A stretch of 64,000 bases of DNA. Origin: Marsupella aquatica. Taxonomy: Eukaryota; Plantae; Marchantiophyta. A program made the position numbers and the translations under genes. Positions 14,177 to 63,568 of this stretch are shown here, one piece after another; positions within the stretch are counted from its first letter, which is position 1; every line of letters starts with the position of its first letter. Below the pieces are notes generated by a model, which was not told the DNA's origin, did not search any database, and worked only from the letters and a program-made list of their open reading frames with translations. The DNA lies in contig OZ316899.1 in assembly GCA_973895155.1 (NCBI GenBank), positions 4,839,241-4,903,240 on the forward strand, in the 5' to 3' direction.

Positions 14177-16965
14177 TGTCACGTCATAAGCTTTGTCCTA
14201 GCGTGGATTTTGGCTTAGACGGGCATAATCTTCATTAGTTTTGAGGGTTCGGGCAAGGAGCGATGTGCAAACTGAACCTTATTCCCGTAATCTAGCGCTA
14301 AGTGCGCCTATTCCTACCTATGGAAATATCATGGGTATAGTTTGTGTTCCGCTGCCAGAACGTACGTAAAGTCGATAGCTGGATCAACCTCGGCTTAAGG
14401 GCTTTTAAGCCTTTGTACTGTCCGCCTCTGATCTGGATCCGATGATATGGGTATCCAACCCGGGCTCGCAACCACTATCCGTAGCCTACACCCCGTGCAC
14501 GGCTTGGATGATGCGTTCGGCCAAGCATTCTCTACCCGTATACGAGATTCATACATGCAACTGAACTCACACACATACAATCTCGGTTTACACGAAGGAA
14601 ATGGTGGGAAAAGACTTTACTTCAGAATCCGTCATACACATATACACGGTTGACTCGACATCTCTTGAGTAAACAGGCCCAACGGCATAGCGGCGTACAC
14701 TACAACGGAGCCCAGCTCTGCACTCGCCCAACAAGCTTAGTCGTACCCTCCCTCCGTGGTATTCTTTTACTCACAAAGGCCGGGACTCCCCGCACACCCT
14801 GTGGATACCCGGTTCTGAAACTAAAATCCCCCCTTGCCTCTACCAAGGGGTGCACTAAATACTAAGAGCCAGGATCTGGACCGACCACGTGCTTGAATCT
14901 AAGCTATCCCAGTTTCTAAACTCTGCTAATTTTCAGGCCGTAAAACGGCGTGTCTTATTCTAAGATCCTAAATATGAAGGTTGGTTGGATAGGACAGCGC
15001 CGCTAACTAGTTTCGGCGCTTGTCCTTATTGCTTGACTATCCTATTCCTAACTCTATCCTACACCTATCCCGCCGCTAATGTCTGGCACGCTTGCTAGAT
15101 CCGCCAGAGTTGGACTTGGAGGGGCCATCCCGCTACCTTCTGAGCCGGTCGGCGTCCTGCTTGAGGAGTTGGACCTGGTCCAGCAGAGATTCATTCTCTC
15201 GCTTCGCCGCGTCCATCTCCTCCACGGCTTCTTGACACGCCTCTTCCAGTTGTTGGACGTCGCTTGTCAGCTTGTCCACCAACTGGGCTTGCTTTGAGGC
15301 TTCTCCTTGAAGCCATGCCACTTCCGCCTTTAGGACGTCTATCTTGCCTATGTCCCGCTGGGCCGGAGCATCGGCCTCTTCCACATCCTTTTGCCAGATG
15401 ATGGCTTGTCCCTTCAAACCGTCAATCTGGGTTCGGAGCCATGCAATCTCGGTGTCCTTTCCAACTCTGGCCTGCTCTGCCAAGGATGCCTGGGCCCTAG
15501 CTTTGGCCACCTGATCTTCAATGGCCACAACCTGAGGCCACAGCAGTTGGACTTTGGTCTCTTGGGCTGCAACTTTGTCTTTCAGGTGGGCAGACTCAAT
15601 ATGATACCGCTCTATTCTCTGCGTAGCCTTGGCTTGCGCATATCCTGCCCGCACGGCTGCAACCAACTCCTAGTTGAAGAAGTAGGCCACCTTCCATGCC
15701 ATATACTCCCCGGTATCCCATGCAATTTGTTGAGAGAAGTCTCTCAGCAACCCATTCAAAAATGTGCCCGGTGCAAAAAGTTCTAGGCTTTCCAGAATAT
15801 GCCCCTCCGTGTTTGGGCAAGGACAGACCTCAACTCGCGCGGGAGTTGGAGTGGTGATGTCCAGCCCTTGAAGTATGGCGGGAGAGGGGGATGGGTTTTC
15901 TGGGGCTGGGCGGTTCTCCTGAACAGTCATGGAGGTTGGCAAGACGTCTTCTGTGACTGCAATCTTGAGCTTGGGTCCGGCCTCTGCCAGCCCGACTTCA
16001 ATCGCGTCCAGGGTCGCCATGACTGCATCATCTGGTACATTCGGAGGGGCGGCAACGGCTAATTGCGGGGCCGAGGTAGCAGGTCTCACGGCCGCCAGAC
16101 TTTGGGCCTCAGACTGAGGTTGCCTCTCCTGGGCTGGGAATATCCACCGCGATGGGGTCAACTTGGGCTCGTTGATACGTGGGAGGCTTTGGCGGTCAAA
16201 GCGGGCGTACCACTCGATGATGATTTTGATGTGGCTAGCAAAGTATGCCTTCCTGTTGAGGAAGACTGAGGTACAAAGTATTCCTTCTCCGCTCCATCTC
16301 CTTGTGGAACTTCTTGGTGAAGAAGGACGCCCACTTCCTAGGTCGATAGTTCTCGACCTGGATGACCTGGGCGGCGGATATTTCGGCCCTTGGTTCCATC
16401 ATCTGGAGGGCGTACTGCTAGAACTCCAGCTGTTCTGCTATCTCTAGGATGAGGCATGTCCTCATCAAGAATCCATTGTCCACTGCTCCCTCGGTCGGGA
16501 AGCTAGAAGATTGATGCTTGGCTCCTTTGCCCCCGGGAGCCCGCGATTCCACCCAATTTATTCCTTCGGGTAGGCTGAAGATCATCTTAAGTCGTGCCTT
16601 ATTGAGGGACATCACTCTCCCGTACGCTCGGGTTTGTTGGCAGGCCTCGTTGAAGTTCTGGATGAACTCCGTCATGTCCTGCCCGTAGTACCTGCTTCCA
16701 TTCCAAGGGAGAGAGGCGAGGTGTTCAAACCCTTGGGTCTTCAGGTAGCATGCATGCTTGGGTTGGAGTATGTTCTTGTGGACATTCTCTCCCATGCAAT
16801 GCATGGTCAGCTTGGCCACCACAACTTATGGCCAAAGGCAGCCCGGATACAGCTGCGGGTTCCTTTCTCTTCCTACTCCGGGACTGGTTTCCAGGGTGAC
16901 TTGAAGAGGGGGACGTTTCCCCATCTTCTCTATCGGGCGGTGTCCGGGTGACCGTGTTTTCTGGT
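14177..16965 (-). mobile_element. Truncated copy of LTR family A (gene-carrying LTR)
   Basis: Begins TGTCACGTCAT like 27794 and is colinear with 27794-30600. The other end is missing. Confidence 0.85.
15076..16960 (-). pseudogene. Disrupted LTR-embedded ORF (family A), conserved domain + coiled coil
   Basis: ORF fragments 16418-16822, 15670-16161 and 15133-15666 match the 28692-31328 protein; both end KRARH*. Confidence 0.85.
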
Positions 16966-20300: not shown

Positions 20301-20373
20301 TCACCGCAGTCTTTCTGTTGGGCTCGCACAGCCCACACACATTCCAGGAGGCAGCCCTCAGCATCCCACCCAT
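17320..20373 (-). pseudogene. LINE ORF2 (APE endonuclease, partial RT, zf-RVT)
   Basis: SWNVCGL, ILALQEIK, SMYAPN; WLGEGEEPSRFY; WRPLTMLNTIYK, QQTGFIPGR, KLDFKKAFDRV; CKLC..ESISHLFMDC. The FADD region is absent. Confidence 0.9.
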
Positions 20374-20405
20374 TTAAGCTGGTCCCCCCTCAATTCTCTC
20401 CGAGC

Positions 20406-24690: not shown

Positions 24691-24759
24691 AGTAATAGTC
24701 AAACTATTTAGTTATTCCGTAACAAAATATAAATCTAACCTATAATCTCTAATAATCAA

Positions 24760-27793: not shown

Positions 27794-30700
27794 TGTCACG
27801 TCATCGGCTGCGGCCTTAACTCAGACTTTAGCTTAGACGGGCACATCCCTCGTAAATTTGAGGGTTCGGGCAGGAAGGGAAGCACGTAATGCACCTTATT
27901 CTCGTAAACTAGCGCTAAGTGTGCATACTGCTAAATACGAACACCTCCTAGGTATGGTTTGTGTTCCGCCGCCGGAACGTACCTTAGTCGATAGCAGGAT
28001 CGACCCCGGCTTAAGGACTTCTAAGCCTTCGTGCTGTCCGCCTTCGATCCGGATTCGATGATACAGGTCCTCAACCCGTGCTCGCAACCACTTACCCGCA
28101 GGCTGCACCCTGTGCACGTCTCGAGTAGTGCGTTCGGCCTGGCGTTGCCACCCATATACGAGAAACCCACACACATACACGCGCACATGCATACAATCTC
28201 GATTTACACGAAGGAAAATGATGGGAAAGGATTTTACTACAAAGGGAACATATGCGTACACTTAGTTGACCCGACAGCCCCGGAATGAACAGGTTCAAGG
28301 CCAAGGGTGCACACTACAACGGAGCCCGGCTCCGCACTCGCCCGACGAGCTTAGTCCTACCCCCTCCCCTTGGTACTCTTTCATTCCCAGAGGTCGGGAC
28401 TCCCCGCACATACCGCGGACGCCCAACTTTGCAACTAAAACCCCCCCCCTCGACTCTACCGAGGGGTGCACTAAATACTAAGGGCCGAGGGACGGGGTGT
28501 CCTCTCGCCGAAGATTCACTAACTACGGTCCTAACTAAGCTGACAGTCAGGCCGGAAACGGCTGTGTCTTATTAGAAGATCCTAATCTATGCAGGCTGGA
28601 CAGCACGGCAGCGAAGCTGTACCTAAGGTAGGTGCCTGTCCCAAGAGCTTGACTAAGCTAGTCCTAATCCTACTCTATTCCTACTCCGCCGCTAATGCCT
28701 GGCACGCTTGCCAGAGCCACCTGAATGGGAGCGGCCATCCCGCTGCCTTCGAAGCCTGTCATTGTCCGCCTTGAGGAGTTGGACCTGGTCCAGCAAAGAT
28801 TCGTTCTCTCGCCTCGCCGCGTCCGTCTCCTCCGCTGCCTCCTGACAAGCCTCCTCCAGCTACTGGGCGTCACTTGTCAGTTTACCCGCCAGCTGGTCCT
28901 GCTTCTCGGCCTCGGTTTGGAGCCGCGCCACCTCGGCCTGCAGCGTGGCTATCTCCGCCGTGTCCCGCTGGGCCTGTTCCTCGGCCTCCTCCAGGTCTTT
29001 CTGCCAGGTGACAGTTTGATTCTTCAAACTGTCAATCTGGTTCCAGAGTCGTGTAATCTCGGCTTCGTTCCCAGCTTTGGCCTGTTCGGCTAGGGCGGTA
29101 AGAGCGTGCGCCTTTGCTAACAACTCATCGGCGGCTGCAACCTTGGGTCGTAGTTGCCGAAGCTCAGCCTCTTGAGCTGCAACTTCGTTCTTTAGGTACA
29201 CGGACTCCACCCGGTACCGCTCTATCCTCTGAAGGGCCTCTGACTGGGCCCAACCTGCCTTTACTGCGGCAACCAACTCCTGATTGAAGAAACAGGCTAC
29301 CTTCCGGGCCATGAACTCCCCGGTATCCCGGGCAATTTGATGAGAGAAATCTCCCAGAAGCCCGTTCAGAAATGTACCCGGTACGAAGAGTTCTGGGTGG
29401 TCCAGGTTGTGCCTGTCCGGAGTTGGGCACGGGCAGACGTCCACACGCGCGGGGGCCGGGGCAGTGACGTCCAGCCCTGGGGACGTAACGTTGGAAGGGG
29501 CTGGAGCGTCCTCCTGTAGCAATGTCCGGTTCTTCGGAATAGCCACCGGTGGGTCTTTGGGAGAACCGGGCTCGGGTAAGACCTCCGCCGTACCGACTTC
29601 TGTACTTAGCCCGGCCTGTTGGGTCGCATCAATGGTTGCAACACCCGACCCATCCGGTACCTCCTCGGTTACGACTACAGCTACTTGTGGAGGTGGGGTG
29701 GGTGAAGCTGGCGTGTCCGCTGGACTTCGGGCCTCGGGCTGGGGCCGTCTCTCCAAGGCCGGGAAAACCCACCTAGCTGGGACCAGCTTTGTAACGTTGA
29801 CACGGGGAAGGGTTCGTCGATCAAACCGGGCGTACCACTCAAGAATGATCTCGATGTGGCTAGCAAAATATGCCTTCCCGCCAATGTACAGCGTCTTCCT
29901 TCGCCGCTCCATCTCTTCATGGAATTTCTTAGCGAAGTACGACGCCCACCTCCTAGGTCGATAGTTCTCGACCTGGATAACCTGGGCGGCGGAGATCTCC
30001 CCCCGGGGTTCCATCATGTGGAGGCCGTACCTCTGGAACTCCAGTCGCTCAGCTATCTCGGGGATGAGGCAGGTTTTCATCACGAACCCGTTGTCCACTG
30101 CTCCCTCTGAGGGAAAACTTGAAGATTGGTACTTGGCTCCCTTGCCCCCGGGAGCCCGTGATTCGACTCGATGGTCACCTTCGGGTAACCCGAAGATCAT
30201 CCTGAGCCGTTCTTCCGTGAGGGACATACTCCTTCCCCGTAGCCGAGTATGTTGACGCGCGTCGTCATAATTCCTGACGAACTCCGTCATGTCCTCCCCG
30301 TAGTACCTGCAAGTGTTCTAGGGGAGGGAGGCGAGGTGCTCGAATCCCTGAGTCTTCAGGTACACCGCATGCTTGGGATGGAGGATGTTTTTGTGAACGT
30401 TTTCCCCCATGCGGTGCATCGTCACCTTGGCCACGGCTACCGTGGCCAATGGTAACCCGGATGCAGTGGCGGATTCCTTCCTCTTCTTCCCCCGTGACTG
30501 GCTTGGGGAAGGTGACACCTCCCCATCCTCCCGATCGGGCCTGGGTAGTGCTACTGCCGTTAGTAACGGGCCCGGGTCGGCCACGGTCACCATGTTGTCT
30601 GTCGGGGCCGCTCCTGGGGTCAGAGCAGGGGGTGGGGACGATATAGTATTGGCCCCCTGAGCGCTTGTTCCTCTGGGCCGCCTGGTCAAGGGTAGGGTAG

Positions 30701-31795
30701 CCTCGTCGTCATCGCTAAGATCCACAGCGTTGATGACGGAGCGTACTTGTGCTGGCTGGGCGATCGGTGGTGGGGTTTGGCTAGGCTGCGGCTGAGGCTG
30801 AAGCTGAAGCTGAGCCTGAGGTTGTACGGGTACGGGTACGGGTACAACTGAGTTGGTCATGTTGGTTGTTGGCCGAGCTCCTATGAAGCTCTGTAGGTGC
30901 TGGTAGAAGTTCTCCGAAGCGAGGGCAGACGACCTTGTCGAACGGGTAGTGCTGGACTCGCTGTTGATGATAGCCCAAACCTGAGCAGGGATGTGGTCGA
31001 AGTGATGTCGCTGCAAGTCGATCGTACCCGGGATATTGAAGACCTCGTCCGGAAGCCGAAGCAATGCTTCCCAGAACCCGATATATTTGTCTCCGTTGAA
31101 GAAGTACCCGGATACCTCTGCTGGTCGGTAAAGCTCGCTCTGAGACGGGTAGTCAAAGTTAAGGATGTAGTGGTGTCGTCCTGCTAGGCGGATGGCTCGC
31201 TCGTACTCGCGTTCGATTTCGTATCGGCGTGGGTTGGCGTGTTTCAATGAGTCGGCCAAGTGCCTTCCGGTAGAAAGGAACTGCGTCCAGAATCGAATGG
31301 CCGAGCTGGAGAGGATTGTGTGCGACATTCAGAGGAGATAGTAGTGGCAACTTAGAGCAAACGAGAGAGCTGGGGTCAAAGCTGGCGCGTGGACTGATGG
31401 ACTGGTGCACTACAAAGGGTTGGCTCCCCTTTTATACCTTGAGGGCTTGTCGATCCCCCGACGTCTCCTCGACGCCCATAGGCTGAACCGTTCACGCTTG
31501 TGGTGTGTCGGCCACTCCGCCGGTCTGAGTCAGCGCGTGTCAGTGGCCGCTTCCTTAAGTTTGTTATACGGACCCGAGGGAGGGGCCCCTCCACGCTCGT
31601 AACCCGGGTGTGCGAATAGCGACCAGCTGCCAGTCCAAACCTGAATTCCCCCTTATTGCCTAATGATATCCTACCCATAATGATTACCTAAATACTGTCG
31701 TTATGCTAATAATAGCGGTCTAAGACACTCCTAACGCGCGTGCCGAGCGCAGTTAGACCGAATCACTCATTAACCGCCGTACCGGCGGCTTCATA
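27794..31795 (-). mobile_element. 4.0-kb solo LTR, family A, containing a large ORF
   Basis: TGTCACG...TTCATA (likely a decayed CA end) with a perfect TSD GAGTC (27789-27793, 31796-31800). No gag/pol. Confidence 0.85.
28692..31328 (-). pseudogene. LTR-embedded ORF of about 878 codons with two in-frame TAG stops; plant-transposon-protein-like domain + coiled coil + basic tail
   Basis: ORFs 30318-31328 and 28860-30290 share a frame, which continues to TAG at 28692. TATAAAA on the minus strand at 31430-31436. Confidence 0.8.
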
Positions 31796-39267: not shown

Positions 39268-40134
39268 TGTCGTGCCGAATGATTTTGGCTCAGGAATGGC
39301 TTTTATAGGGGATGATGGACGAGGCTTCCCGGTTGGGTTGCATGCATGCTGACTCGGAGGGGCTCCTTGGTTGGATGGATTGAGGTTTGGTGATTGGGTA
39401 GGTCGTCACCAGGTTTGGTGTTTGGGTGAGTCACCAGGCTTGGAGTTTGGATGAGCCTCGCTGATGGCAGCTGGCTCAGGCTGGATGGTTGGGTTTTTGA
39501 TGCTACTTAAGACTTGAGCCTTGGCTCATTGAGGTTGTCGATTGTCTATTCAGGTTGGTTGAATTACGTTCTTTGAGTTCCGCTCCGTTCTGCGGGACTC
39601 GGCTGTTGTGCGTCGGTTTTGGAGTTCTGAGCGAGTTTTCGATCCAGGCGGGAAGTTTCTCGAGTCTGGAGTTTCATTGATCCAGGCGGGGAGTCTCTCG
39701 AGTCTGGAGTCTCGTTGATCTAGGCGAGAAGTTTCTCGAGTCTGGAGTCTCGTTGATCCAGGCGGGGAGTTTTCTCGAGTCTGGAGCCTCGTTGGTCCAG
39801 GCCCGAGTTCCGTGCGAGCTGTTTTAGACTAGTGGAGTAGCTAGTCGAGTTTTGGTTTTGTGAACTAAGGAGGATAGTTTTTCCGTCAGATTTTGAGTAG
39901 TTAGTCACTCAAGGAGTTCTACCCGATAAGTTAGAGGTAGCGGCCCGCCGTAGGGCCAGCTACCAGACTCTTGCGGGCAAGCTTACTCAAGGGCACCTAT
40001 TGTAAACTTTGTGCGAAAAGTAAAAAATATAAAGGAGTGAGAGTTCGCTCTGAAAAGTGCTTGTCACCTGTCCTGATCGCAGCCAGAAGTGCGTAGTTTG
40101 CCCGAGGAGCCCCTAACTTAAAGTCCACGTGACA
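39268..40134 (+). repeat. 5' LTR (about 867 bp) of the gypsy element
   Basis: TGTCGTG...CGTGACA followed directly by a PBS and gag. The left boundary is inferred from the terminal inverted repeat only. Confidence 0.7.
39641..39805. repeat. 38-bp tandem repeat, about 4 copies, within the LTR
   Basis: GATCCAGGCGGGrAGTyTCTCGAGTCTGGAGTyTCrTT units. Confidence 0.9.
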
Positions 40135-40135
40135 T

Positions 40136-40152
40136 TGGCGACCATACTGGGG
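40136..40152 (+). promoter_or_regulatory. PBS TGGCGACCATACTGGGA (tRNA-Arg-like)
   Basis: TGG start 1 nt after the LTR end. Resembles the complement of a plant tRNA-Arg 3' end (from memory). Confidence 0.7.
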
Positions 40153-40157
40153 ATTCC

Positions 40158-42107: not shown

Positions 42108-42129
42108 AAAGAGTGGATCAGCGGAGTGC
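42083..42129 (+). promoter_or_regulatory. Putative -1 ribosomal frameshift signal
   Basis: G_GAA_AAC in the gag frame, 6-nt spacer, 12-bp stem 42096-42107/42118-42129. pol is in the -1 frame and open from 42059. Confidence 0.7.
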
Positions 42130-44375: not shown

Positions 44376-44377
44376 TT

Positions 44378-45319
44378 TGCTGCGTGGATAGCAACGTTGG
44401 AAGCGGCTTGAGCTCCTCTTTCCAACGAGGTCAATTATAGCTGATTTGGCCAAATACACAAAAAGTTATGTCCCCGCAACCGAGAGGGGGTACTCATTGC
44501 TACGCTAACCCGAGTTTGGCTAGCCTAGCTATCCTATCTAACCTTAGAAGAGTTAACCCATGGCCTCGGGCTAAGCTGCTATCCGTGTCCGTTGTCCGCT
44601 ATCTGTGTCCATTGTCCGTGTCCGCTATCCGTGTCCGTTGTCCGTGTCAGTTGTCCGTGTTCGTTGTCCGTGTCCACTATTTGTGCCTGCTGTCTACTAT
44701 CCGTGTCCATTGTCCGTGTCCGTTGTCCCGCTATCCATTGTCCATGTCCGTTGTCCGTGTCTGTTGTCTGTGTCCGTTGTCCGTGTCCGTTGTCCGCTAT
44801 CCGTTGTCCCGGGTTTAGTCTAACCCCAATCTAAATCCGCTAGCCACTAGCCACTATCCGGTATCTGTATCCGCTAACCTCTATTCGCTATCCACTATCC
44901 GTGTCCGCTAACCTCTATCCGTATCCGCTATCCGTGTCCGCTAACCTCTATCCATATCCGCTATCCGTGTCTGCTAACCTCTATCCATATCCGCTATCCC
45001 GGGTTACACACTAACCCGTCACACTAATAAGATCATATCTTTCCTAATACACCTCCGTTTTGAGAGTGTTTTATATCAATTTTACTCGCCTTGACCAGAT
45101 CTTTCCAATGCTCTTTACAGATCCGGATTTGGTGACATATTGAAAGAGATATGGTCGCCGACCACCCGCAACATAGCTTTTATTTCCCTACTATTAATGC
45201 CATGATTGCCCTTATTCTTGCCATCTTGCTAATTGTTATGCAATATCAATAGCTACTCCTTGCATACAGCAGCCTAGTTAATCAGATTAAAGAATAAGGA
45301 CCATGTCATCGGCGTCACA
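44378..45319 (-). mobile_element. LTR fragment of the same family as 1-160, with an internal minisatellite
   Basis: Ends GGCGTCACA at 45319, where it cuts the minus-strand gag. The left end is lost. Confidence 0.7.
44580..45000. repeat. TCCGTG/TCCGTTG microsatellite-like tract followed by about 33-bp CTAACCTCTATCC repeats
   Basis: Directly visible periodic sequence. Confidence 0.9.
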
Positions 45320-46807
45320 GACCCGATAGCAATCATGATCTAAATCCTCTTCTGAAAATGTTGATAGGGCCTCGGCCTCATCATCAGATGGTCCAAACTC
45401 TGCCTCGGCATCCACTTGCCATCCGAGTTCGATGTGGTTGATTTGAACTCCTCCTGGGGTAGTACCCGGAGGCAAGACCTTGACCAGCAAGAGCTTATGA
45501 TTTGTGGCAAGTCCTGCGAACCAAGTAGGACATTGTCCTAGCATGTGACCCTCCTGTCGGCATCCCATACATAGCTGAGCTGGTTGTCCATCACCTTGTT
45601 TGCGTGCATTCGGGCATTCTCTAGCAAAATGGCCAGGTTGACCACAATTATAGCATGCCGCAAATTGTTGTACATTCATCCTAGGAGGTACTGATGGATT
45701 CTGAATAATCCGAGGATACATTTCTCCCGGATTGTTTCTTAATCCTGACCAGAGAGATGCAGGTCGGTTGGATAAGTCTAGTGCTCCAGTCTCACTGATG
45801 CCGAAAACACTATCAGCGGCATCCCCTAGAAAGTACTCTACTTCTCCCTGACATGGTCTGACCTCAGCCACATGCCGAACATGACTAGTATTAAGTTTAA
45901 GACATGCGTCTTTATGATGTTCGGTTTTATAACATAAGGCACACCATACAGAGCTATCCTCGAGTACTACCTTCTTCTTTGGTTTTACCTCTGCTATTAT
46001 AGCTTTAAGCTGCTCGGTAAGAGCGACGATGTTATCTGGCGTTTTAGCTTCTAACTTGACTTTCAACTTCCCCCTCCTTCTACCCTTCTTTTTCCAAGAT
46101 TTTTCTTCTTCAGAACTAGAAGATGACTCACTCTTGCTACTTCCACTATCCGAGCTTGAGTTATCACTTTTTGACTTCTTAGAATGTTTCTTTTTCTTAT
46201 CTTTTTTCTTATGGGGTGATCCCTCCTCCAATGAGGAACTCTCAGACTTGAGCTGTTTTTTCCGGCTTGTGATGTCCGCATTAATGTATAATTGAATATC
46301 TGTAATTGCCTCGGCTAAAGTCTCTGGGTTCTCCTTCCTAATTGCAAAACTCATCTTCTGTGGCAAAGCATTCACCAACCATTGAAGTTGCATACCTTTA
46401 GATGCATTGGTCTTTGTACGTCTTACCAGCTTTTGGAAGCGTTGCAAGAACTTTCTGAAGGATTTGTTCTCCTTGAACCGAAGTCGTCCCAACTTCAGCA
46501 CTGCTAGCTCTGAGGTTCCAATGGGTCGAAACTCCTTTACAAATAGTGATTTGAAGGTATGCCAAATGGCTTGATCTTCCACATCCAATGCTCTGTACCA
46601 GGGCCTAGCCTCACCCTTGAACAGGCCGGGAAGAATCTGCATCTTGATGGCCGATTCTCTATTTGCTGCAGCGGTCCCTTCGAAGTCATCCAACCATTCA
46701 TCCGGATCCTCATCTCCTCTTCCATGAAATGCCTTGTAATGAATGCGCGACCGTTGGCTCAGTCTGGTCCCAGGCCTCTCTTCTGGCCGTGCCTTTGGTT
46801 CCCCCAT
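45320..46807 (-). CDS. gag: Gypsy (Tat-like) Gag with three CCHC knuckles, truncated
   Basis: FHGRGDEDPDEWLDDFE; CALCYKTEHHKDAC, CYNCGQPGHFAREC, CMGCRQEGHMLGQC. Confidence 0.88.
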
Positions 46808-47045
46808 GTCTGTTGGGGACTCACTTCTCCCTACCGACTCCTCTTCTAGTATGTCTTTGTCGATGCCACTTTTAGTTACAGAATGACTAGCTCCTTCTAC
46901 CCCTCTCAGTCGCTGTGTATCATGCCACCCGGCGAGCTGCTGCAGACGAACTCTCTCCCGTTGAATCGCTCTTTCCCCCTTGGCATAGTTTTAGTCATTA
47001 CCTACGTTTCCTCCCTAACTTCATATCTCACGGCTTAAGAAATGC

Positions 47046-47063
47046 CCCCTCCATCTAGCGCCA
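47046..47063 (-). promoter_or_regulatory. PBS TGGCGCTAGATGGAGGGG (tRNA-Asn-like)
   Basis: A few nt inside the LTR end at 47068. One mismatch to the complement of the plant tRNA-Asn 3' end as I recall it (TGGCGCTAGAAGGAGGGG). Confidence 0.75.
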
Positions 47064-47067
47064 AAAA

Positions 47068-48262
47068 TGTGGTGCGTCCCATGGCTCCCTAAACCCAAGA
47101 AACCCCTCTCACATGCCGATTCCTGCAAGTTTTGCTCTTAGCGAGGCCGATTTTGCGGCTTTAGCGGCATGGGACGCTGCTAACTTCCTTCTACTACTAT
47201 TGCTATTAACATTTTACTCACATATACTAGACAGATCCTTCATCGGGTCATGAGATACGTAGCCGACCTATTCTCGGCCTTCCCTTGTCCTCCTCTCTTG
47301 GTTTTTCTTTAGGTATGTTTGGATTCTGCCGCCGGAATGATCCCCAACTGGCTTGGGTAAGCCGCTAAGACCTCTCTCAGCTCGACACATCCAACTCTTA
47401 CTACCTTGCTTACTCCCTTCTTGGTTGATGTGGGCAATCTTCAAACAAGTTAATGCGACACACAAATAGCAAAATGACTCCTTCTGACTGAGTTATACCA
47501 TGCACTTGCCATACAAACAGTACTTCTCATATACAAGATTTGCGAACTAAGCCGTGAGGCCAACTCTATTCATTTCTTAGGTATGAGGAAACATGAATAT
47601 ACACAAGGGTCACAGTATAACTAACCGAGAGCTTCTTTAACTACTTGATCCCAACCCTGCTGGTGCACTAAAAACTTGCTAAGGAAGAAGGCCCTGAACT
47701 CCCCGCAGCCCAGGTACTTATCCTCGTAGTGGATCCGCCTAATTCCTTGCAGCGTAAGCCTAATCTACCTAACTGTAATCTACCTATGTATAGCGAGGCA
47801 GGAGCACAAGTGTTGCTCTTTCCAGTGGATCCGCAATCCCACTAAGCTAAGTGTCAGGGCCGCCCCTTGGTCCTGATCCTAATTCTAAACTTGGAGATCT
47901 GAGCCTGCCCTGCCCTCTCACGCCTCTTCCCTCCACGTCTGCCCTCCTTCAAAGGAGCGGCCCTCCACCACCGTCATGGCAGCGGTGTCTGGTCCTCAAT
48001 GGACGCCCCAACACTTCCTCCGCAACCACTACCGTAGGTCCGTCCTCTGACAGATTACCTGCTCCTGACCGAGTCAACTCTCCATTGGCCTGACTGGGTC
48101 CACCCTCGGCTTCGGCCTCAGCATTGGCCACGGCCATGGTTCCATAGTCACCCTTAATTGTTTATATTTCCCTATTTTTGTTACTATACTAAGGTGTTTC
48201 CTAGGATACACTCCTGATTTTACTAATTAAACTGGCCTAATGATTCCTGGCTAGGCATCACA
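47068..48262 (-). repeat. 5' LTR, family B, internally deleted version (1195 bp)
   Basis: Same termini as 56326-61011 (TGTGGTGCG...GGCATCACA). It aligns to about 56326-57378 and 60876-61011, and precedes the PBS and gag. Confidence 0.9.
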
Positions 48263-48669
48263 CAAGACATCACAAACAATATACCGGACCCACTATCAGT
48301 GAAAGGAGCACAATCGCGAAGTGATTGGCCTTGGTGGGAAATAGCTATTAACTTTGAGTTAGACTCACTCATTTAGAGAGAAGTTTTCGGACCTATCATT
48401 CCTGCACCACTTCACACACAACTTACTGGATACAAGTTTATATTTACAAAGAAAAGAAATGCACAGGGAGAGGTCATACGATATAAGGTCCACCTGGTAG
48501 CAAAGGGCTATACTCAGATACCAAGAAGAGATTTTGACCTTACATATTCACCAGTGATGGACTCCATCACCTACAGATACATGATATCATTTGCACTTGC
48601 TTATAAGTTGATGCTTCACATCCTAGACGTGGTGACAGCCTATCTATACGGCATACTTGACACTACTAT

Positions 48670-49011: not shown

Positions 49012-49601
49012 CACCACTATCTACATGAAAGCCCCCCCGAGTTAATCACAATAATGAACTTTCATGTTCAGGGGGAGAGAAATGGTACCATATCCCATTC
49101 TACAACTTGGGACCACACGAAGAACTCCTACAGAGTGTCTTCCTAAGCATGCAAAACAAAATGAACCTTCAATTCTAAATAACCAAAAGAGGCAGAGCAC
49201 ATTCCAAGAAAATCATAGGCATACAAGGACTTATAAATCGCGATCTGCTACACAGACGACGAGAAAAGAATTTGCAGTACAAGTCTTACGATCAATGTAT
49301 GGCCTTAAGCAGAGTGGTCGCACCTGGTACAAAAAGTTCCGGGCAGAGATGTTAGCACTCGACTTTGTGAATGATGAGATTGCTCCTTGTCTATTTTTAA
49401 AACAGCAAGGAACTGAATATATCATTGTCGCTATTTACGTAGACGACATTAACATTTTTGGTACTCCTATTATAACTAAAGAGACAATCAAAATTTTGAA
49501 AAACACATTTCAAATGAGGGATCTTGGTGAACCCAAATACTGTCTTGGTCTTTAGTTTGATTATGTGCAGGGTGGCATATTGATTCACTGGGTGACCTAC
49601 A

Positions 49602-50614: not shown

Positions 50615-52182
50615 CTACACCAAGAAGATATTAAAATAGTTCAACATGGACAACGCTCACCCTGTGAGCACTCCAATGGAACTGAGATCACTCAATCCCA
50701 ATAAAGACACTTTCAAGAAGTGAACCAAAGCAGAACAGACACTTGGATCGGAGAAACCTTACCTCTCTGCAATCGGAGCGCTCATGTACTTGGCTGACCA
50801 AACGCGCCCTGACATTTTGTTTTTAGTAAACCTCCAAGCGCATCACAGCTCCCAACCAACAATAAGGCACTAGAATGGAATCAAAAGAGTTTCTGATACT
50901 TACAGGGAACAGCAGACTTGGGATTGTTTTTCCCACACAACGCAAAACTCAAACTCACAGCATTTGCTAATGCCGGATATCTTTCCAATCCCGACGATGC
51001 CAAATCTCAGACAGGCTACATGTTTCTTCAAGGGAGCACAACCATATCTTGGAGGAGTTTGAAATAGACCCTTATGACTACATCTTCTAACCATGCAAAA
51101 ATAATAGCACTTTATGACGCAAGTTGCAAATGTCTGTGGCCTAGACAACTTATTGACCACATAAGCAAGAACACAGGTCGTCCACTCTTGAATTTTCCAA
51201 TGATTATTTATGAAGATAATCGACCTTGTGTCGACCAAATCACTCAGGGCTTCATAAAAGGTGACAAGATTAAACACATTGCGCCCAAATTTTTCTTCAC
51301 GCACGAACAGCATGGTGACAGGATTCAGGTTCAATGGATACCGAGCAAAGAAAACCGAGCAGACCTTTTAATGAAACCACTTCCGCCATCTCTACACAAA
51401 GATCACACAACAAGCATCGGAATGCGTCGACTCTCCACTTTACTACAAACCACAAATTAATACATTTTGACAGCCAAACCCTAGAAAACTATGAAGCCCC
51501 TAAGACTGCCAACTCCCGAAGCAAAAGCAAAAGCGATTGGATCCAGCACGACCCCTCCCTCACCAAGTTTCTTTTGTACACCATCGCAACCGAGGAACGA
51601 TCGATCGATTAACCGATCCAAAGCAACTTGATCTAATCAACAAACAATACAATTAAACAGTGGTGGGAATCGATGAGAGGAGATGGAAGCAATGCAAAAC
51701 GAGGCAAGAAGAAGATGTTGATCAGCGGAGTGACAGACAATTCATGTTTGGGTAGTACATTACAATATCCTACACCATTTACATACACCCTTACACCTGA
51801 CACTTCATTACATTTAGAGTTATCATTTACATTAAACTCCAATGAAGAGCATTTACTCCATGATTACCCTATGACATGTAAGTAGTGGCACTATTTCCTT
51901 TGGAAGAAAGAAAAAAGGTTTTAAGGAGGCCATACTAAACTAGGGCTTAATCTTACACTTACATTTAGACTCTACATAGATTGGTTCTTTTATACCCCAA
52001 TAAAATAACCAAGGGGGAGTGTTATGACATGTAGATTACATTGTAAGTGACCATTACATTAGACCCTAATGTAATACTTAGAGGTTAAGGTAGTTACCTA
52101 ACCGCCTCATCATGTAACACATAAAGGCTTTCATCCCTAATAGAAGAGATATTGATGTTAGTGTAATCTATGGAGTAGAACA

Positions 52183-53828: not shown

Positions 53829-56325
53829 ATGAACTCCATGGAGAAATTACATTTCCAGGCACTCTCTATAGATGGACTTAATTATCTATCATGGTCATTG
53901 GACGTCGAGGCACACCTCGCATCCAAAAATCTACAGGACACAATATTAACTGATGTAGGCTCTACTCTCCAACAAAAGGCCCTGGCTCTGATTCTGATAT
54001 GACATCATCTAGGAGAGCCACTTAAAATCCAATACTTGAATCATTATAATCCCCGTATTCTATGGGAAGAGCTGCAACTCAGATTTGACCATATGCGTAC
54101 AATCTCACTCCCAACAGCCCGCCACGATTGGATAAATCTACGAGTCCAAGATCACACCACAATTTCAAGTTATAATAGCGAATTGTTTCGAATTACTTCA
54201 CAATTGGCTGTTTGCGGCAGCCCGGTAGATGATGCTGAACAAATCGAAAATACTTTGTCTACTTTTCATGTTACCAATCTGGTACTTTAATCACAATATC
54301 GCAACATGAACTTTACTAGATATTCACAACTAATTTCACACATGCTACTTGCAGAAAAGCACCAAATTCTATTGATGCAGAATGCAAAGATAAGGCCACC
54401 GGGGACCGCACCCCTACCACCGAAGACAGATACTCACTTTGCTAAGCTGTCAAATAGATATAGGGGACGCAGCCAAAAGAGCTTCAGGGGAAGCCGAGGG
54501 CGACCATATGGACGGGGTCGCTACCAAGGCCGTGGAGGAGGCCGAACTGGATTGGATGAATCACCCCAAACCTGTTGGAATAGAAATGGTTTTCGAGGAA
54601 GAAGCCCTGGCAGAGGATTCCAACAACAAGGGAGAGATAAGTTTCCTCCACTATTTTGTTTTTGTTGTGGTACAAAAGGCCATATTCAAAAAGCATGTAG
54701 AGCAGCAGCGCATCTGGTTAAACTCTATAAGGAAAGCCTGAATAAGCAAACACCAGAAACACAAGGGAATTATATGGAAATACCCGAAAGTATAAATACT
54801 TATATAGCAGACACCGAAATGCCTGAAGCTCATACAACTAACTATGCATCTGAGATTTCACAACTCTCAGACCCCTCCAGATGCATTGTCGATAGTGGAA
54901 CTTCTCATTCGATCCTACGCACAAGAGAACTCTTTCAGCATATTTCCCAGTCCAAAAGAGAGATAACAACTATCACAAGCCAGAACCAGATCGAGGAGGG
55001 CAATGGCCCTGCAACTGTCCGATTTACAATGGGGACAGTTATACATATACACTCAGCCATTTATGCACCCAAGGCCACACAAAATTTGATAAGTTTCAAA
55101 GATATCCTAGCCAACAACCTACATATACATACAAATAGAACTGAAAAAGGAGATATCCTCCAAATATTAGAAAAAACGCGAATGGGAATGGAAGTCAGGG
55201 AGATCTTACTGATTTCCCCACTAGGCTTATACATCACTAAGATCCTAGCCTTCCACACTGAGAAGACAGTACCCACATTAACAGAAATTTGGCACAATAG
55301 GCTTGGGCATCCAGGTACCACAATGTATCATCAGATAATCCGAGACACAACAGGAATCCCAACAGGAGTCCACCCATCCTCTATGAACCATACATGCCTA
55401 GCCTGTGCACAAGGAAAACTCATCATAAGACCTTCAGTATCCAAGACTTCACGATCAATACCAAGATTCCTCGAGAGAATACACGCTAATGTTTGTGGAC
55501 CAATAGATCCATCGTCTGGCCCCTTTAGATTTTTTCTTGCCATTATTGATGCTTCATCAAAATGGTCTCAAGTTTCATTGCTGTCAACTCGGAACTTGGT
55601 TTTTCCACGAATCCTATCCCACATTTTGAAGCTGAAATCGCAGTTTCCAGATCACCCAATTAAAACTTTAAGGGTAGACAATGCCGGGGAGTTCACCTCG
55701 AAGACTTTTGATGATTTATGTGAAACAATAAGTATCGATACAGAGTATCCGGTTCCCCATGTTCACTTTCAAAATGGCATAGCCAAGTCATTAATTAAAA
55801 GACTACAGCTGATAGCTAGGCCATTACTGATGCAAACCCAATTACCAACGACCGCCTGGGGACATGCAATACTGCATGCTGCTTCATTGCTCAAATACCA
55901 ACCGTCTGCATTCAATTCACAGACCCCATATCATTTGGCATTTGGACTTCCACCGAACATCTCACACCTGCATACCTTCAGATGTTTAGTCCTTGTACCG
56001 ACAATGGGCCCTAATCAAACAAAAATGGGACCCCAGAGGCAAAGAGGGATATACATAGACTACGACTCACCCTCGATAATATGTTTTCTTGAGCCATCAA
56101 CAACAGACGTGTTTAAGGCCAGATTTATTGACTGCAATTTTTTTGAGGATGTGTTCCCGATTAACAACTCAAGAAAACTCAGAGACTGCAACAAAGTCAA
56201 GAAGACCAAGCAAGCAGATGAAGAAGTAAGAAGGATAATTCACCTTCACCAGATGCTCGAAAAGTTACCGGATGCATTTAATGATGCAACAGCAATAACC
56301 CGTTCGCATATTGAGGCAGGAAATG
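53829..56325 (+). pseudogene. gag: Copia Gag-protease-integrase with nonsense mutations
   Basis: CFCCGTKGHIQKAC, IVDSGTSH, WHNRLGHPG..CLAC, RVDNAGEF, QNGIA. Confidence 0.93.
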
Positions 56326-59300
56326 TGTGGTGCGTCCCATGGCTCCCTAAACCCAAGAAACCCCCCAGCTCAAGCCGATTCCCGCAGGTTTTGCGCTTGG
56401 CGAGGCCGTTTCCGCGGCTTAGCGGCATGGGACGCTGCTAACCTTCTTCTACTACTACTATTAACATTTACACACATATACTGGACAGATCCTTCATCGG
56501 GTCATGAGATACGTAGCTGGCCTAATCTAGGCCTTCCCTTGTCTTCCCCTCCGTCTTGTTAGGTATGTTTGGATTCCGCCGCAGGAATGATCTCCAATAG
56601 GCTTGGTTAAGCCGCTAAGACCTCTCTCAGCTCGACACATCCAACTCTCACTCCCCTGCTTACTTTCCTTCCTCTATTAGTTGATGTGGGCACTCTTCAC
56701 ACAAGTTAATGCGACACACAAATAGCAAAATGACTCCTTCTGACTGAGTCATACCATGCACTTGCTATACAAACAGTACATCTCATACACAAGCTCTGCG
56801 AACTAAGCCGTGAGGCCAACTCTATTCAGCTCTTAGGCATGAGGAACCATGAATATACACAAGGGTCACTGTATGACTAACCAAGAGCTTCTCTTACTAC
56901 TTGATCCCAGCCCGGCTGGTGCAAACTAAAAACTTGCTAAAGAAGAGGCCCTGGACTCCCCGCTGCCCAGGTATTTATTCTGGCAGTGGATCTGTCCAGA
57001 ACTTCGCTGCGTAAGCTTAATCTATCCTACCTGTAATCTACCTAACTGTACAACGAGGCAGGAGCACAAGTGTTGCTCCTGCCAGTGGAACCGCAATCCC
57101 ACTAAGCTAAGTGTCAGGGCCGCCTCCTGGTCCTGATCCTAATCCTAAACTTGGAGATCAGCGCCCGCCCTGCCCACTCACGCCTCCTACCTCCACGTCC
57201 GCCCTTCCTAAAAGGAACGGCGCCCTTGCACCGTCACGACACCGGTGGTGGATCCTCAATGGACGCCCCCAACGCTTCCTCCTCAGCCACTGTCGTAGGT
57301 TCGTTCTCTGACAGATTACCTGCCCTTGACTGAGTCAACTCTCCATCGGCCTGACTGGGTCTACCATCGGCATTGGCGTCGGCTCGGGAATCATTCTCGG
57401 CTACGGCCTCAGCCTTGGCTATGGTCTCCCTGGCCTGCTCAAGAGGCGGATCTGGGATACCGGCCTCATTATTGAGTAGTTCGGCTTGGGCCGCGCCATC
57501 CCCACCTTTGGTGATAGCGGGATCTATTGCCGTGTTCATGTCGGAGGTTGGTGCTGGGTCTACCTCCTTGGTCACCACGGCCAGTGGAGTCGTATTACTC
57601 CTTGACCCTGAAGGTTTCCGCTTCTTCTTCTTTTCTGGTTCGGCAGCTGGTCCCTTCCCCTTCCCACTTACTTCCGGCACTGGTGCAGGTGGCGCGGCTT
57701 GTTCTTCGGCCAGTACCACTCCTGGTAACTTGGTTGCCCCAATTGGAGTTGGGCCTGATGAAGACAAGCACTTAAATACTGCGGCTTGTTTCTTCAGCCG
57801 CTCTGTTTGGTTGTCGGCCCGCCGCTGTAGGTTCTCCATCTTCCTCGTGATTTCCTCCAACTCCTCCTGGGTCTCATCCAGGTCCTTGCGCGCCTCTTCT
57901 AGCTCGTTTTTGGCTTCCTCCAATTCCCTGTGGGCTTCCTTCAATTCCTTCTTGGTGGTAGCCCTCTCCTCCCGGGTTGCTCTTAGCTCCTTGTCGAGCT
58001 CTGCAATGATGACAGACTCCATCTGGTTCATCTTGGCGTAAGTCTGATCGAGCATCTCGTCCTTCTCCCATAGGTCGGCCTTGAAGCTGGCCGTCAGGGA
58101 CGCAAGCTCCTGCTGCAGCGCCATAATCCCTTGATAGGATTTCCCTAACTTGGCCTCCTTCTGCTCAAGGGCTCCGCGGATTTTCTCGAGCTCCCCCTTC
58201 AACGCCCATTCCTTTCTTTGGGTCTCTGCCATGGCCCGGTTGTTGGATGTTATGTGGGCCTCCTCTGCATTCCTCAGCTCCTTCTTCCATTTCTCCCTGT
58301 CCTTGATTGCGTCGGCCAATTCTCCTTGGGTCCGCGTCAGTAGATTCTCGATCATCCGATTATCAGATTGTGCGGTATCCAATTGGCCCTGCATGATATT
58401 TAGCTCATGCCGCTTAATCCGCAGCTCATCTTGGGCTTTCTTGGCCACCCTCAGGTCCTTGATTTCGGCTTCCCTTTCCCTAAGCCGACGGATGACCTCG
58501 TCCTTCTTGCTTCTTTCCAAGGCCACCGCTTCTTCTAATTGGCGCTTCTCCAACATCTCCCTCTGGAAAAAGGGTCCCTGCTCCAACTCCTCCCCAAATA
58601 TGCTGAGCGTCAGTTCTCCACACATCTCCCCGTACTCCATGGCTCTGTCTTTAGCATAGGTGGAGGAAGTAGAAGTCATCGGCATCATCCACCGCGGCCT
58701 CTGCTCCCAAGCCGTCTTGCGGATCTCTTCAATCGTGGCTAGAGGTTTGCTTCCTTTTTCGGCTAGCTGCTTGATGTCCTCCGGCCAATCTCCTCCTAGC
58801 AAATCCTTTTCTCTAGCCAGGGCTGCCTCCTCTTCCTGCCTGATTCGCTCCTGAAATTCCTGCACTGTCTGTTTTATGCCGTCAAAGCTCGGGGGAGCAA
58901 CATCTGGTGGGGGAGACTCAGGGCTACTCTGCTGGTTGGGGTCCCCTCGTACTACCCTTGGAAGTGTGGGGATAAACCGGCCACAGGTCCTTACTCCTGG
59001 AACGTGATGGTCCGACCCATAGTCGGAGTTATCATGGCTGCAGTCCTCCACTGCCTCCTCTACTTCTTGGACTTCCGGCTTCTCCCTCTCCTCTTCGTCC
59101 GTAGGAGCTTCAGGCAATTCTGCCTCAGATTCAGAGCTTGAGACTCCCACGTACATTCGAACACCCGGCTTGGATTCTGGCCTGATTCTCTCCTTGTCTC
59201 CAGTAAAGGGGTTTTCCCTTGTAAGCCGGTGTAGGCCTACCTCTGGAGCAGTGTCCTGCATTGTTGCCATTGCCGTTGTCGTTGCCGATGCCGATCTCTT

Positions 59301-61011
59301 TTCTTTCTCCAGTAGTTTCAACAGATTTTGCATGCCTGGTTGCTGCATCGGCAAGTCCTCCGTCCTTGGCCTAAACACCTGCTCGATCGTAGGGCTAACA
59401 GGTGGTTGAGGCTTCTCTGCTACCGGCCTCGGTGCTGGAGCTTCCTCGGGTGCCCTTACCTACAGGGGAAGTACTGGGGCAAAGGTCTGACCTCTGGCAT
59501 ACCGGCACAACAGCGGCATGTGATAGCCAAGCCGCGACATGCTCCCCATGCCGATTACCTGCTGCTCCTCCTTTAAGATCTTCTTCAATTGGTTGAGGAG
59601 GTACCCGTTGTAGTCCCGGCTTGGGTCTGGCCTCTCTGCCAGATAGACCTGTGCCTTGCCGATGTCTGCCCTCGGCAAGTTACAGTGCATGGTCACCCGC
59701 AAGAAGTCGATCATCTCTCCTATGTGTGGGTTGGTGCAGGTGTTCCGGAAGAAGCCATTCTTCGTTGATGGCCCGGGGAACAACCGGAACTCCTTGTCAG
59801 GCAAGGTCTTCCTGGTATCAACTTTGGTCTTATTGCCTATCGGCAAGCCAAACACTTCGGCAATCACCTTGGGAGTAAGATAGAAATCCTTCCCATATAT
59901 CCTCGTGCAATTGGTCTCGGGTTCCCATGACCCCACGAATTCTAATAGGTCTGAATCCGGCACCTCCGGCTTCAGCCATGGTAATCTTACAAAGGCCTCT
60001 AAGCCGGATTCGGCCATGAAGCCTTGATACTTCTTGGTCTGCATGGCCGTAAAGCATGCATCCTCCTCCCGTGCAAAATGTAGTTGCACCTCCACCGGTA
60101 GGGTTGCCGCCCAGCCTTTCCAGGTGTCATCCCTGGTTGGAATGGCATTGATGGGATCGACCTCCTCCTCTTCGGCTTCTCCCTGCCTCCTGCTCTGCTG
60201 CTCGACTGGCTTCCTTGGTGCCGCCGACCTCGTTCTTTTTGCCGGGGTGGCTTCATCGTTGACGGCTCCCTTCCTCTTCATCTCTGCTGCCGTGGAGGTT
60301 TCTCCTAGCACCGTTGCCGGGGTCCACCTTTCCGTGCTACCCTTCAATTCCCAGTGTATGTCGTTGCAGTTCTTGATGGCCTCTCGAATGCCGATGATTC
60401 TGTCTTCACAAAACAGAAGATCGTCGAGCTGATTGGAAGTAGGAGTCTACAAGAACTTGGCGTTGATGAGTTTGCCTCCTAAGAAAGCCGTCTTCTGTAG
60501 CTCCCACAATCGAGCGAGCTCCTGCCGTTCTCGAGCTGCCCTTTCTGATTCCTCGTCCTCGTAAGTCTTGATGTACTCAGTTGCCCGTTCGAACAGGCAT
60601 CCCCAGAAATGTGCCGCTTGATTGACGTTGCTCATACCCTCCTTAGGTCGATCGTCGGTATCTACTCTCTCCCCGAGTGCTTGCCTAAGCAGCTGACAGT
60701 AGTTGGCCTCCCGTAGTCGTCTGCCTAGTTCGTGCTCGCAAATGAGCCACCATCTCCTGCAAGCGCTCCTTACCCCTCTCCTCTTCCAGTCCTTCCTCCC
60801 GTTGATCCTTCCTAGCCGCCGACGCTTAACGCGCCCTAACCCTAATTGAGTTTTCACCCCCAGCGTCCTTACCTCCGGCCTCGGCCCGGGTTCCATGGTC
60901 GCCCCTAATTGTTTATATTTTCCTTGTTTTGTCCCTATACTAAGGTGTTTCTAGGGTGCATTCCTGCTTTACCCACTTAACTGGCCGAGTGATTCCTGGC
61001 TAGGCATCACA
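56326..61011 (-). mobile_element. 4.7-kb solo LTR, family B, containing a large ORF
   Basis: TGTGGTG...CATCACA with perfect TSD AAATG (56321-56325, 61012-61016). Removing it restores the copia frame SHIEAGNVPARI. Confidence 0.92.
57234..60896 (-). pseudogene. LTR-embedded ORF of about 1220 codons with two in-frame TAG stops; plant-transposon-protein-like domain + long coiled coil
   Basis: ORFs 60447-60896, 59460-60347 and 57234-59378 are all in one frame with open spacers. E/K-rich heptad region and KKKKRK motif. TATAAA at 60912-60917 (minus). Confidence 0.82.
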
Positions 61012-61016
61012 AAATG

Positions 61017-63120
61017 TACCTGCCAGGATAGCTGCCCAAGATTGCTTAGCCTCAGAGGTTGCTCCCAAAGCTAAGCGAGGTCGACCACCAGGTTCAAAAG
61101 ACAACCAACCTTGACAAAGGAGAACACAGATAAGTATAGAGAATGCATCAATACTTGTGGTACAAACTACCTTACCACCCACAACAACTGTTGAAAATGA
61201 GGAAACCACCATTAATTATATGCATACGGGCAGAATTTTGAATAGAAACAATACTGTAATCGACGATATTTTTGCATATACAATTGCACAAGACATTACC
61301 AAAGATATGCCTGACCCACTATCCGTGAAAGAAGCACAATCAAGGAGTGATTGGCCTCAGTGGGAAATAGCAACTAACTCTGAGTTAGATTCACTTATTC
61401 AGAGGGAAGTATTTGGGCCGATCATTCCTGCACCACTCCACTCACAACTTATTGGATATAAGTTTATATTTACCAAGAAAAGAAATGCACAGGGAGAGGT
61501 CATCCGATATAAAGTTTGCCTGGTAGCAAAAGGCTACACTCAGATACCAGGGAGGGATTTTGACCTTACATATTCCTCTGTGATGGACTCCATCACTTAC
61601 AGATACATGATCTTATTCGCACTTGCAAATCAGTTGATGCTTCACATCCTAGATGTGGTAACAGCCTATCTATATGCCATACTTGACACCACTATTTACA
61701 TGAAAGCCCCTCCTGAGTTGATCACAAGAATGAACTTTCAGGTTCAAGGGGAGAGAAATGATATCATAAGAAATGCCCTGAAAATGAAACAACACGAAAC
61801 ACTCCTACAGAGTATTTTCAAAAGCATGCAAAACCGAATGAACTTTCAGTTCTGAATAAAGATCAAATACAGAACACATCACAAATAAATCAGAGGCATA
61901 CAAGAACAGAGAAATCATGATCTGCTACACAGATGACAAGACAAGAATATGCAGTACAAGTTTTATGATCAATGTATGGCCTCAAGCAGAGTGGTCGTAT
62001 CTGGTATAAAAAGTTCCAGGCAGAGATGTTAGCACTCGACTTTGTCAATGATGACATAGCCCCGTGTCTATTTTTAAAACAGAGAGGAACTGAATACATC
62101 ATAGTCGCTATTTACATAGACGACATTAATATTTTTGGAACTCCCAGCATATCTAAAGAAACAATCTAAAATTTGAAGCATACATTTCAGATGAGGGATC
62201 TTGGTGAACCCAAATACTGCCTTGGCCTTTAGTTTGATTATGTGCAAGGTGGAATACTAATTAACCAGGCGACTTACACCAAGAAGATATTAAAGCAGTT
62301 TCATATGGAGAATGCTCATCCGGTGAGCACTCCCATGGAGCTAAGAACACTCGATCCTAACAAAGACACCTTCAAGAAAAGAACTGAAGCAGAACCAACA
62401 CTAGGGAGCGAGAAGCCTTACCTCTATGCAATTGGAGCGCTGATGTACTTAGCAAATCAGACGCGCCTTGACATTTCATTTGCGGTTAACCTGCTAGCAC
62501 GTCACAATTCTCAACCAACACTAAGACACTGGAATGGAATGAAGAGAGTATTTTGATACTTACAGGGCACTGCCGATTTGGGATTGTTTTTCCCTCACAA
62601 TGCAAAATTGGAACTCACAGGATTTGTTGATGCCGGGTATCTTTCAGACCCCGATGATGCAAAATCGCAGACTGGATATGTGTTCCTTCAGGGCACCACA
62701 ACCATATCTTGGAGGAGCTTGAAACAGACCCTTACGACTACGTCTTCTAACCATGCAGAGATCATAGCATTATATGAGGCAAGTCGAGAGTGCATGTGGC
62801 TTAGACAGCTAATTGATCACATAAACAAACACACTGGCCGTCCACTCCTCAGCTCGCCTACGACGATTTACGAAGAAAATTGACCTTGTGTCGATCAAAT
62901 CACTCAGGGCTTCATAAAAGGTGATCGAATTAAGCACATAGCTCCCAAATTTTTCTTTACGCATGAGCAACATGGTGATAAGATCCAAGTTAAATGGATC
63001 CCGAGCATAGAGAACCGAGCAGATCTTTTTACGAAGGCACTTCCGCCATCTTTACATAAAGAACACACAGCAGGAATCGGGATGCATAGACTCTCAGTTT
63101 TACTACAAAGCGCGACTTAG
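61017..63120 (+). pseudogene. pol: Copia RT and RNase H with stops
   Basis: GYKFIFTKKRN, LVAKGYTQ, YGLKQSG, IYIDD, AIGALMYL, DAGYLSDP, SSNHAEIIAL, KHIAPKFF. Confidence 0.93.
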
Positions 63121-63568
63121 TACATTTCGACAGCAAGCCCTAACACAACAACAAACATTCCGACTACAAATGTTACACCTACTACTTCATTACATTTTAG
63201 AGTTACCATTTACATAAAACTCTAATTGATAGTATTTACAACATGATTACCCTACAACATGTAAGTAGAGGCACTCTTTCCTTTGGAAGAAAGTGGAAAG
63301 GTTTTAAGTAGGCCTTGCCAAACTCAGGGTTAATCTTACACTTACATCTAGATAGATTGGTTATTTTATATCCCAATAAAATACCCAAAGGGGAGTGTTA
63401 TGACATGTAGATTACACTGTAAGAGACCATTACATTAGACCCTAATGTAATACCTAGAGATTGAGGTACTCACCTATTCTAACCACCTCCTGATGTAACA
63501 CATAAAGACTTTCATCCATAATAGAAGAGACATTCATGTTGGTGCAACCTTTGGAGTAAAACATTGAT

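Follow-up and report, generated by a model that had tools for sequence, protein, structure and literature searches.

A probable solo LTR of a liverwort retroelement that carries a sense gene with a predicted VANC21-like core

The unit at positions 56326-61011 of the window (the whole 64-kb stretch of DNA analysed) is most likely the lone end-repeat (solo LTR) of a plant retroelement. On balance, we favour the reading that it stems from a high-copy Ty3/gypsy family, termed family 1 here, whose 4.7-kb LTR bears, likely in U3, a sense gene for a protein with a predicted VANC21/plant mobile domain (PMD) fold and a coiled coil, which would work in the nucleus and most likely counter silencing. Solo LTRs are usually counted as coding-dead scars; here about three quarters of the LTR appears to be a conserved gene, and this in two families.

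The unit and its surroundings comprise the following features:
56326..61011, minus strand (the element sense): family 1 unit, 4686 bp, TG..CA, most likely a solo LTR (from its ends and an empty site; orientation from a primer-binding site (PBS) plus gag beside the short copy)
56321..56325, plus strand: left target site duplication (TSD) AAATG, by sequence inspection
61012..61016, plus strand: right TSD AAATG, by sequence inspection
54291..56325, plus strand: left part of the host copia element (protease and integrase region; Pfam)
61017..61855, plus strand: host copia element, right part (reverse transcriptase; RVT_2, E 7e-21)

The termini are TGTGG at 56326 and CACA at 61011, both flanked by AAATG, and the unit is inserted into pol of the copia, with the integrase region on one side and the reverse transcriptase (RT) on the other. 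The host copia is presumably Bianca-like. In two contigs of run X2, position 56320 is joined directly to 61012, with 4691 bases skipped. This joint represents the empty site, as present in further host copia copies, and since it skips the unit plus one target copy, the AAATG duplication is real. Self-BLAST found no internal direct repeat in the unit, which rules out a small element bounded by LTRs of its own. A gag or pol Pfam match was absent from three pieces of the family 1 frame, neither a PBS nor a PPT was found within or next to the unit, and the terminal inverted match extends to only 7 of 8 bases. The unit thus shows several features by which solo LTRs are recognised: TG..CA ends with a duplication of 4-6 bp, a single-target empty site, and no internal LTR pair, gag, pol or adjoining PBS. 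An earlier note on this DNA had described a TG..CA unit with a perfect 5-bp TSD and no gag/pol, and had called it a solo LTR; the ends, AAATG, the empty site and the Pfam scan bear out the description, and together with the lack of internal repeats they support the assignment. Other joints in run X2 link 56326 to 57166, 58945 and 59512, that is, the unit interior to its own end, which suggests copies nested within other copies. Further internal deletions of the unit are present at low depth in contig joints.

Within the unit, we annotated:
57234..60896, minus strand: family 1 frame, 1220 codons from the first ATG; probable coding start at 60635 (1133 codons), from the ORF and its relatives
60447..60449, minus strand: in-frame TAG at codon 150, not shared (more than 99.9% of the depth reads another letter in X1 and X2)
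59460..59462, minus strand: in-frame TAG at codon 479, from the ORF translation
60912..60917, minus strand: TATAAA, candidate promoter of the family 1 gene, 282 bases before the probable start codon
56326..57233, minus strand: non-coding tail, 908 bp, presumed end of U3 plus R and U5, with a single AATAAA at 56979-56974

The frame runs from 60896 to 57234 and covers 78% of the unit, with no stops besides the two TAGs. The remaining five frames of the unit contain 24-62 stops, and when the bases were shuffled 500 times, at least 14 stops remained in whichever of the six frames was best. The single sense frame of about 78%, broken by two TAGs, that had been claimed is confirmed by these counts, and the claim of a sense gene inside a solo LTR is supported. 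Owing to the two in-frame stops, the copy at 56326-61011 is a pseudogene. Translation probably starts at Met88 (60635), 87 codons after the first ATG, giving a protein of 1133 aa and a gene that occupies 73% of the unit: family 2 (see below), the Calypogeia fissa protein P0013 and P0026 all open with Met, a few residues and A..FW, which aligns to Met88. Built from family 2, P0013 and P0026 only, a profile reaches 10.9 bits over aa 94-191 of the window protein, against a maximum of 3.5 for 999 shuffles. The first ATG (60896) was rejected as start codon, since three relatives begin at the Met88 equivalent. Of the ORF of about 1220 aa originally proposed, the frame of 1220 codons stands, but the likely protein is shorter and this copy is dead. 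Likewise, the TATAAA proposed just upstream is present (60917-60912), but a mere 21 bases separate it from the first ATG, which leaves too little room for transcription to start upstream of that ATG, and Met88 is the likelier start. The outer TATAAA is the only one in each of the family 1 and family 2 units (60917; 31436), and the tail holds just weak TATA-like words. The AATAAA at 56979-56974 is not kept in the short copy at 47068-48262.

A second family shows the same layout:
27794..31795, minus strand: 4002-bp unit of family 2 with TG..TA ends, flanked by GAGTC on either side and laid out as in family 1
28692..31328, minus strand: gene of family 2, 878 codons, interrupted by two TAG; TATAAA at 31436, 108 bases upstream of the ATG
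14177..16890, minus strand: second family 2 copy, shortened, 72% identical by alignment

At the DNA level, the two families share one 29-base match only, and their core domains are 26% identical (pairwise E 4e-16). Between the family 2 copies, dN/dS is 0.20 over 582 codons and 0.13 in the core, versus 0.96-1.47 in other frames, values indicative of purifying selection on the family 2 gene. No PBS or gag linked to family 2 was found in the 64-kb window; its ends, TSD and the analogy with family 1 suggest that this unit, too, is an LTR.

The type and orientation of the family 1 element derive from a short copy and its neighbours:
47068..48262, minus strand: short form of the family 1 LTR, 1195 bp, without 57417-60876; 5' LTR of a disrupted gag-bearing element, by alignment
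47046..47063, minus strand: PBS-like TGGCGCTAGATGGAGGGG, four T past the LTR end, by sequence inspection
45290..46990, minus strand: Ty3/gypsy-type gag frame, interrupted by another element at about 45320 (Pfam matches to Retrotrans_gag at E 5.8e-10, zf-CCHC and, weakly, Ty3_capsid at E 0.0012)

On the minus strand, the short copy is followed by four T, the PBS-like word and the gag frame, which fixes the element sense as minus and makes the family 1 gene sense. We take the PBS-like word to be of the tRNA-Asn type; tRNA genes for comparison are absent from the 64-kb window. Judged by its gag type, the short-LTR element would be Ty3/gypsy; its pol and 3' LTR are missing because another insertion cut it after gag. 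Lost with pol are the RT-RH-INT order of Ty3/gypsy elements and the RT clade and archaeal RNase H by which the Tat/Ogre/Athila lineage is recognised (PMC6317226). Short copy and long unit are 87% identical over 1068 columns (about 1.07 kb) at one end and 83% over 140 (about 0.14 kb) at the other. The claim that the same sequence recurs at 47068-48262 thus holds for both ends and for the adjoining PBS and gag, but not for 57417-60876, the 3.46-kb gene interior, and within the window no LTR other than the deleted form is linked to gag. The first ATG of the frame and its last ~50 codons fall in the parts shared with the short copy, which fits the latter being a deletion; on the same ground, the short LTR was ruled out as the ancestral form. 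The element that cuts gag is another Ty3/gypsy element with RT, RNase H and an integrase zinc finger (40122-44391, plus strand; 44563-44999; 45187-45320). Close to its right end are 13- and 20-bp tandem arrays, and repeats of 38 bp lie at 39641-39809; the end that cuts gag also matches 28-161. Each of the two family 1 copies sits in the pol gene of a copia element; the two copias are related, and in host coordinates the insertion points differ by 275 bases (48261-48669, 49012-49601 and 50616-52182 match 61287-63563; a third copia copy lies at 156-1538), possibly by chance in a repeat-rich region or through a target preference.

As to which LTR form is typical, public contigs were placed on the long unit and on the short copy (four runs each), their summed depth being a crude proxy and no copy number. 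Depth on the long unit was about 1.5e5-1.2e6 from end to end (X1, X2), compared with 400-4200 on the flanking copia. Gene-only bins relative to shared-end bins gave 1.25, 0.86 and 1.10 (X1, X2, X5; X6 was left out of this averaging for its low depth). Depth on the short LTR was 2.4, 2.6, 6.6 and 5.4 times that on gag (X1-X4), and gene-only depth was 4.3 and 3.4 times that on gag, with gag at ~93,000 and ~183,000 (i.e. ~1e5). The flat ratio of gene to ends, with the gene above gag, indicates that the gene follows LTR dosage rather than that of the internal region. Were the short LTR usual for gag-bearing elements, its joint should be prominent; it is absent among the best 15 of 92 joints and the best 12 of 42 spaced joints, down to a depth of ~115. 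Contigs on the short copy run off at 48119-48135. On the other side, the short copy and its gag are more diverged baits, and no single contig spans an element. A one-off insertion of the gene segment into elements with normally short LTRs, which the earlier note named as the case that would refute its reading, is not confirmed, given the flat depth, the short joint missing among the best-supported joints and the second family being alike; the flat depth from end to end in particular led us to reject a one-off insertion. These data support a family-wide presence of the gene in family 1, and full-length elements very likely carry two long LTRs. We classed 22 of the 23 in-frame sites (the stop site was left out) among the best 40 of 1084 variable sites. 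Among those listed, 12 vary among relatives, with 10 at third positions and 6 synonymous; 10 are nearly fixed against the window copy, and 8 of these change the residue. This pattern of listed sites agrees with constraint on the gene across the family and decay of the local copy. For the 48 C-terminal codons common to the short copy, no constraint was seen (1.36).

In the predicted protein, the following regions can be distinguished:
60324..60635, minus strand: conserved N-terminal region, aa 88-191, common to family 2 and two outside relatives (profile score)
59463..60149, minus strand: globular core domain, about aa 250-478, with a predicted VANC21/plant-mobile-domain-like fold
57747..58559, minus strand: long, charged segment without proline (about aa 780-1050), a likely coiled coil (composition; weak Pfam ATG16, E 0.012)
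57615..57632, minus strand: KKKKRK, candidate nuclear localisation signal by composition, its function inferred

For the core, the prediction is a fold like that of the transposon anti-silencing factor VANC21, at 12% identity, with the PMD/VANC fold shared across most of the domain. Coiled coil or low complexity makes up most of the protein. No transmembrane helix was detected (highest 19-residue hydropathy 0.76), and an env-like protein was rejected for lack of a membrane helix. A HMMER search over representative proteins gave 21 matches at E<=0.001; P0006, P0009 and P0018 were left out of the alignments as likely spurious multi-stretch matches, P0006 and P0009 being repetitive. The Pfam models PMD PF10536, DUF1985, Transposase_32 and ATHILA matched none of 18 alignment members at E<=1 and no window piece at E<=0.05. 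Word-index searches yielded nothing with P0001 aa 30-480 against proteins of 671-2135 aa, a 328-aa piece against 180-574 aa, or alignment A2 against 1379-3935 aa. Metagenome scans confirmed 0 of 62 and 0 of 74 stretches, alignment A2 had 0 matches in a PDB sequence search, and Foldseek gave none at E<=0.001 against viral models or the PDB.

The MMTV superantigen is a protein of about 320 aa. Like the family 1 gene, MMTV sag/naf is a whole sense ORF in the LTR, present twice per provirus and equipped with its own U3 promoter (PMC9412291, available text); it differs in encoding a small membrane superantigen of an animal retrovirus, whereas the family 1 protein, 1133 aa long and soluble by prediction, comes from a 4.7-kb plant LTR, and a sequence link between the two is not expected. 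Leads from the Atlas point to the extra-ORF domain families of Ogre (PMD PF10536), Retand (Transposase_28) and Athila (ORF-1 PF03078), as given in the accessible parts of PMC6317226, PMC7264820 and PMC11963269. These, too, are conserved plant Ty3/gypsy accessory ORFs with a globular domain and a coiled coil, presumed nuclear, but they are described as internal (on the 5' or 3' side and often antisense), while the family 1 ORF is in the LTR, sense and without a Pfam match. An internal location is also what the consulted portions of PMC7264820, PMC11963269 and PMC3485330 describe for plant-element extra ORFs, whose function is unknown according to a review (PMC7264820, in part). Retrosat2, RIRE3, RIRE8 and FRetro3 resemble family 1 in having LTRs longer than 3 kb, many solo LTRs and an extra ORF; in the text available, however, these chromovirus-type grass elements have ORF0 upstream of gag-pol, treated apart from the LTR (PMC3485330). 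VANC21 belongs to VANDAL21, a eudicot Mutator-like DNA transposon (PMC5735166; PDB 9LNK), whereas family 1 is an LTR retroelement with a 5-bp TSD. VANC binds tandemly repeated motifs, but no repeated 7-10-mer above the null was found in either unit or in gag plus leader. The host PMD proteins MAIN and MAIL1 share the fold class via VANC (PMC13547354), but are host genes that enforce silencing (PMC5418596, in part). Among the papers listed by searches of a largely non-subscription literature, none describes a whole gene inside a plant retrotransposon LTR. Within it, the parts are known (solo LTR, PMD/VANC-fold accessory protein, MMTV-like placement), and their combination was not found in print.

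Rather probably, by analogy with MMTV sag, the gene is part of U3 and has the outer TATAAA as a promoter of its own. Genomic RNA would begin in the 908-bp tail and contain a single copy of the gene at its 3' end, which both LTRs would then receive through reverse transcription; a shift of plus-strand priming to a site upstream of a 3' internal extra ORF could have turned that ORF into U3. It is very unlikely that the gene lies in R/U5 instead, the outer TATAAA being the main promoter and one transcript or spliced form serving gene and gag-pol. The single outer TATAAA per unit and the weak TATA-like words of the tail would agree with this, but the standard retroelement cycle would then imply about 4.5 kb of minus-strand strong-stop DNA and an 1100-codon frame before gag on the same RNA, and MMTV has a separate U3 promoter for its LTR gene (available text of PMC9412291). 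We also consider it unlikely that the unit is a separately amplified non-autonomous mobile unit (an element altered by internal deletion or by recombination, or a DNA element with short TIRs) that has kept the LTR ends and the accessory gene, and that true elements have short LTRs. The sole LTR beside PBS and gag is indeed 1.2 kb long, gene depth above gag depth would be expected from separate amplification as well, and PMD/VANC-fold genes also reside on Mutator-like DNA transposons (accessible text of PMC5418596 and PMC5735166). Yet the unit lacks the internal direct repeats, PBS and PPT needed for retro-mobilisation, its terminal inverted match is minimal, the short-form joint is not among the supported joints despite the gag depth, the frame starts and ends inside shared LTR parts, and the same accident would be required in two unrelated families.

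As for the protein, it likely binds DNA or chromatin and oligomerises via the coiled coil. In the nucleus, it would act in trans on chromatin of the element itself and most likely counter silencing there, although anti-silencing in trans as its job is a tentative, if plausible, proposal. With the same LTR-borne gene, it is unlikely, though conceivable, that the protein represses transcription or brakes copy number, serves as an adaptor for nuclear import or integration targeting, or binds the chromosome axis like the ATLANTYS/Athila coiled-coil extra ORFs. Such roles would accord with MAIN/MAIL1 promoting silencing (PMC5418596, in part), the lack of a repeated target motif, the globular-plus-long-helix accessory proteins of ATLANTYS that resemble ASY2 (PMC13547354) and the predominance of coiled coil or low complexity; against them, the one solved structure matched by the core is a DNA-bound anti-silencing factor, and family 1 attained very high depth.

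If the gene indeed sits in U3 of a family with two long LTRs, each full element would hold two copies, and element removal would keep the gene: LTR-LTR recombination would leave one promoter-gene-terminator cassette, so that remnants of host excision would still hold a likely counter-defence gene. Annotation tools that seek extra ORFs only between LTRs would miss such a gene. The link to the VANC21 fold offers a concrete candidate job for plant retrotransposon extra ORFs. It also bears on the origin of the plant mobile domain, in Gypsy elements or in host genes, an open question in the available part of PMC5418596, and on the proposal that VANC derives from captured MAIN (PMC13547354). Speculatively, and with considerable doubt, an old Ty3/gypsy group of liverwort-like plants may have moved a VANC-like anti-silencing gene into its LTR, deletion by LTR-LTR recombination, the main route open to the host, leaving many self-contained cassettes that go on providing the protein in trans, and the PMD/VANC fold existing on retrotransposons long before angiosperm MAIN/VANC.

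Elsewhere in the window, a SET-domain frame (36764-37720, minus strand; Pfam E 7e-6) lies beside CACTA-type transposase pieces (33403-36208; DUF4216) and is possibly carried by a CACTA element. Two decayed elements in opposite orientation (18013-22158, minus; 24746-27330, plus), which from their translations we take to be LINE-like, flank a tandem array at 24214-24689. At 2442-2939 (minus strand), a Cys/His-rich frame resembles, by eye, tandem PHD-like zinc fingers.
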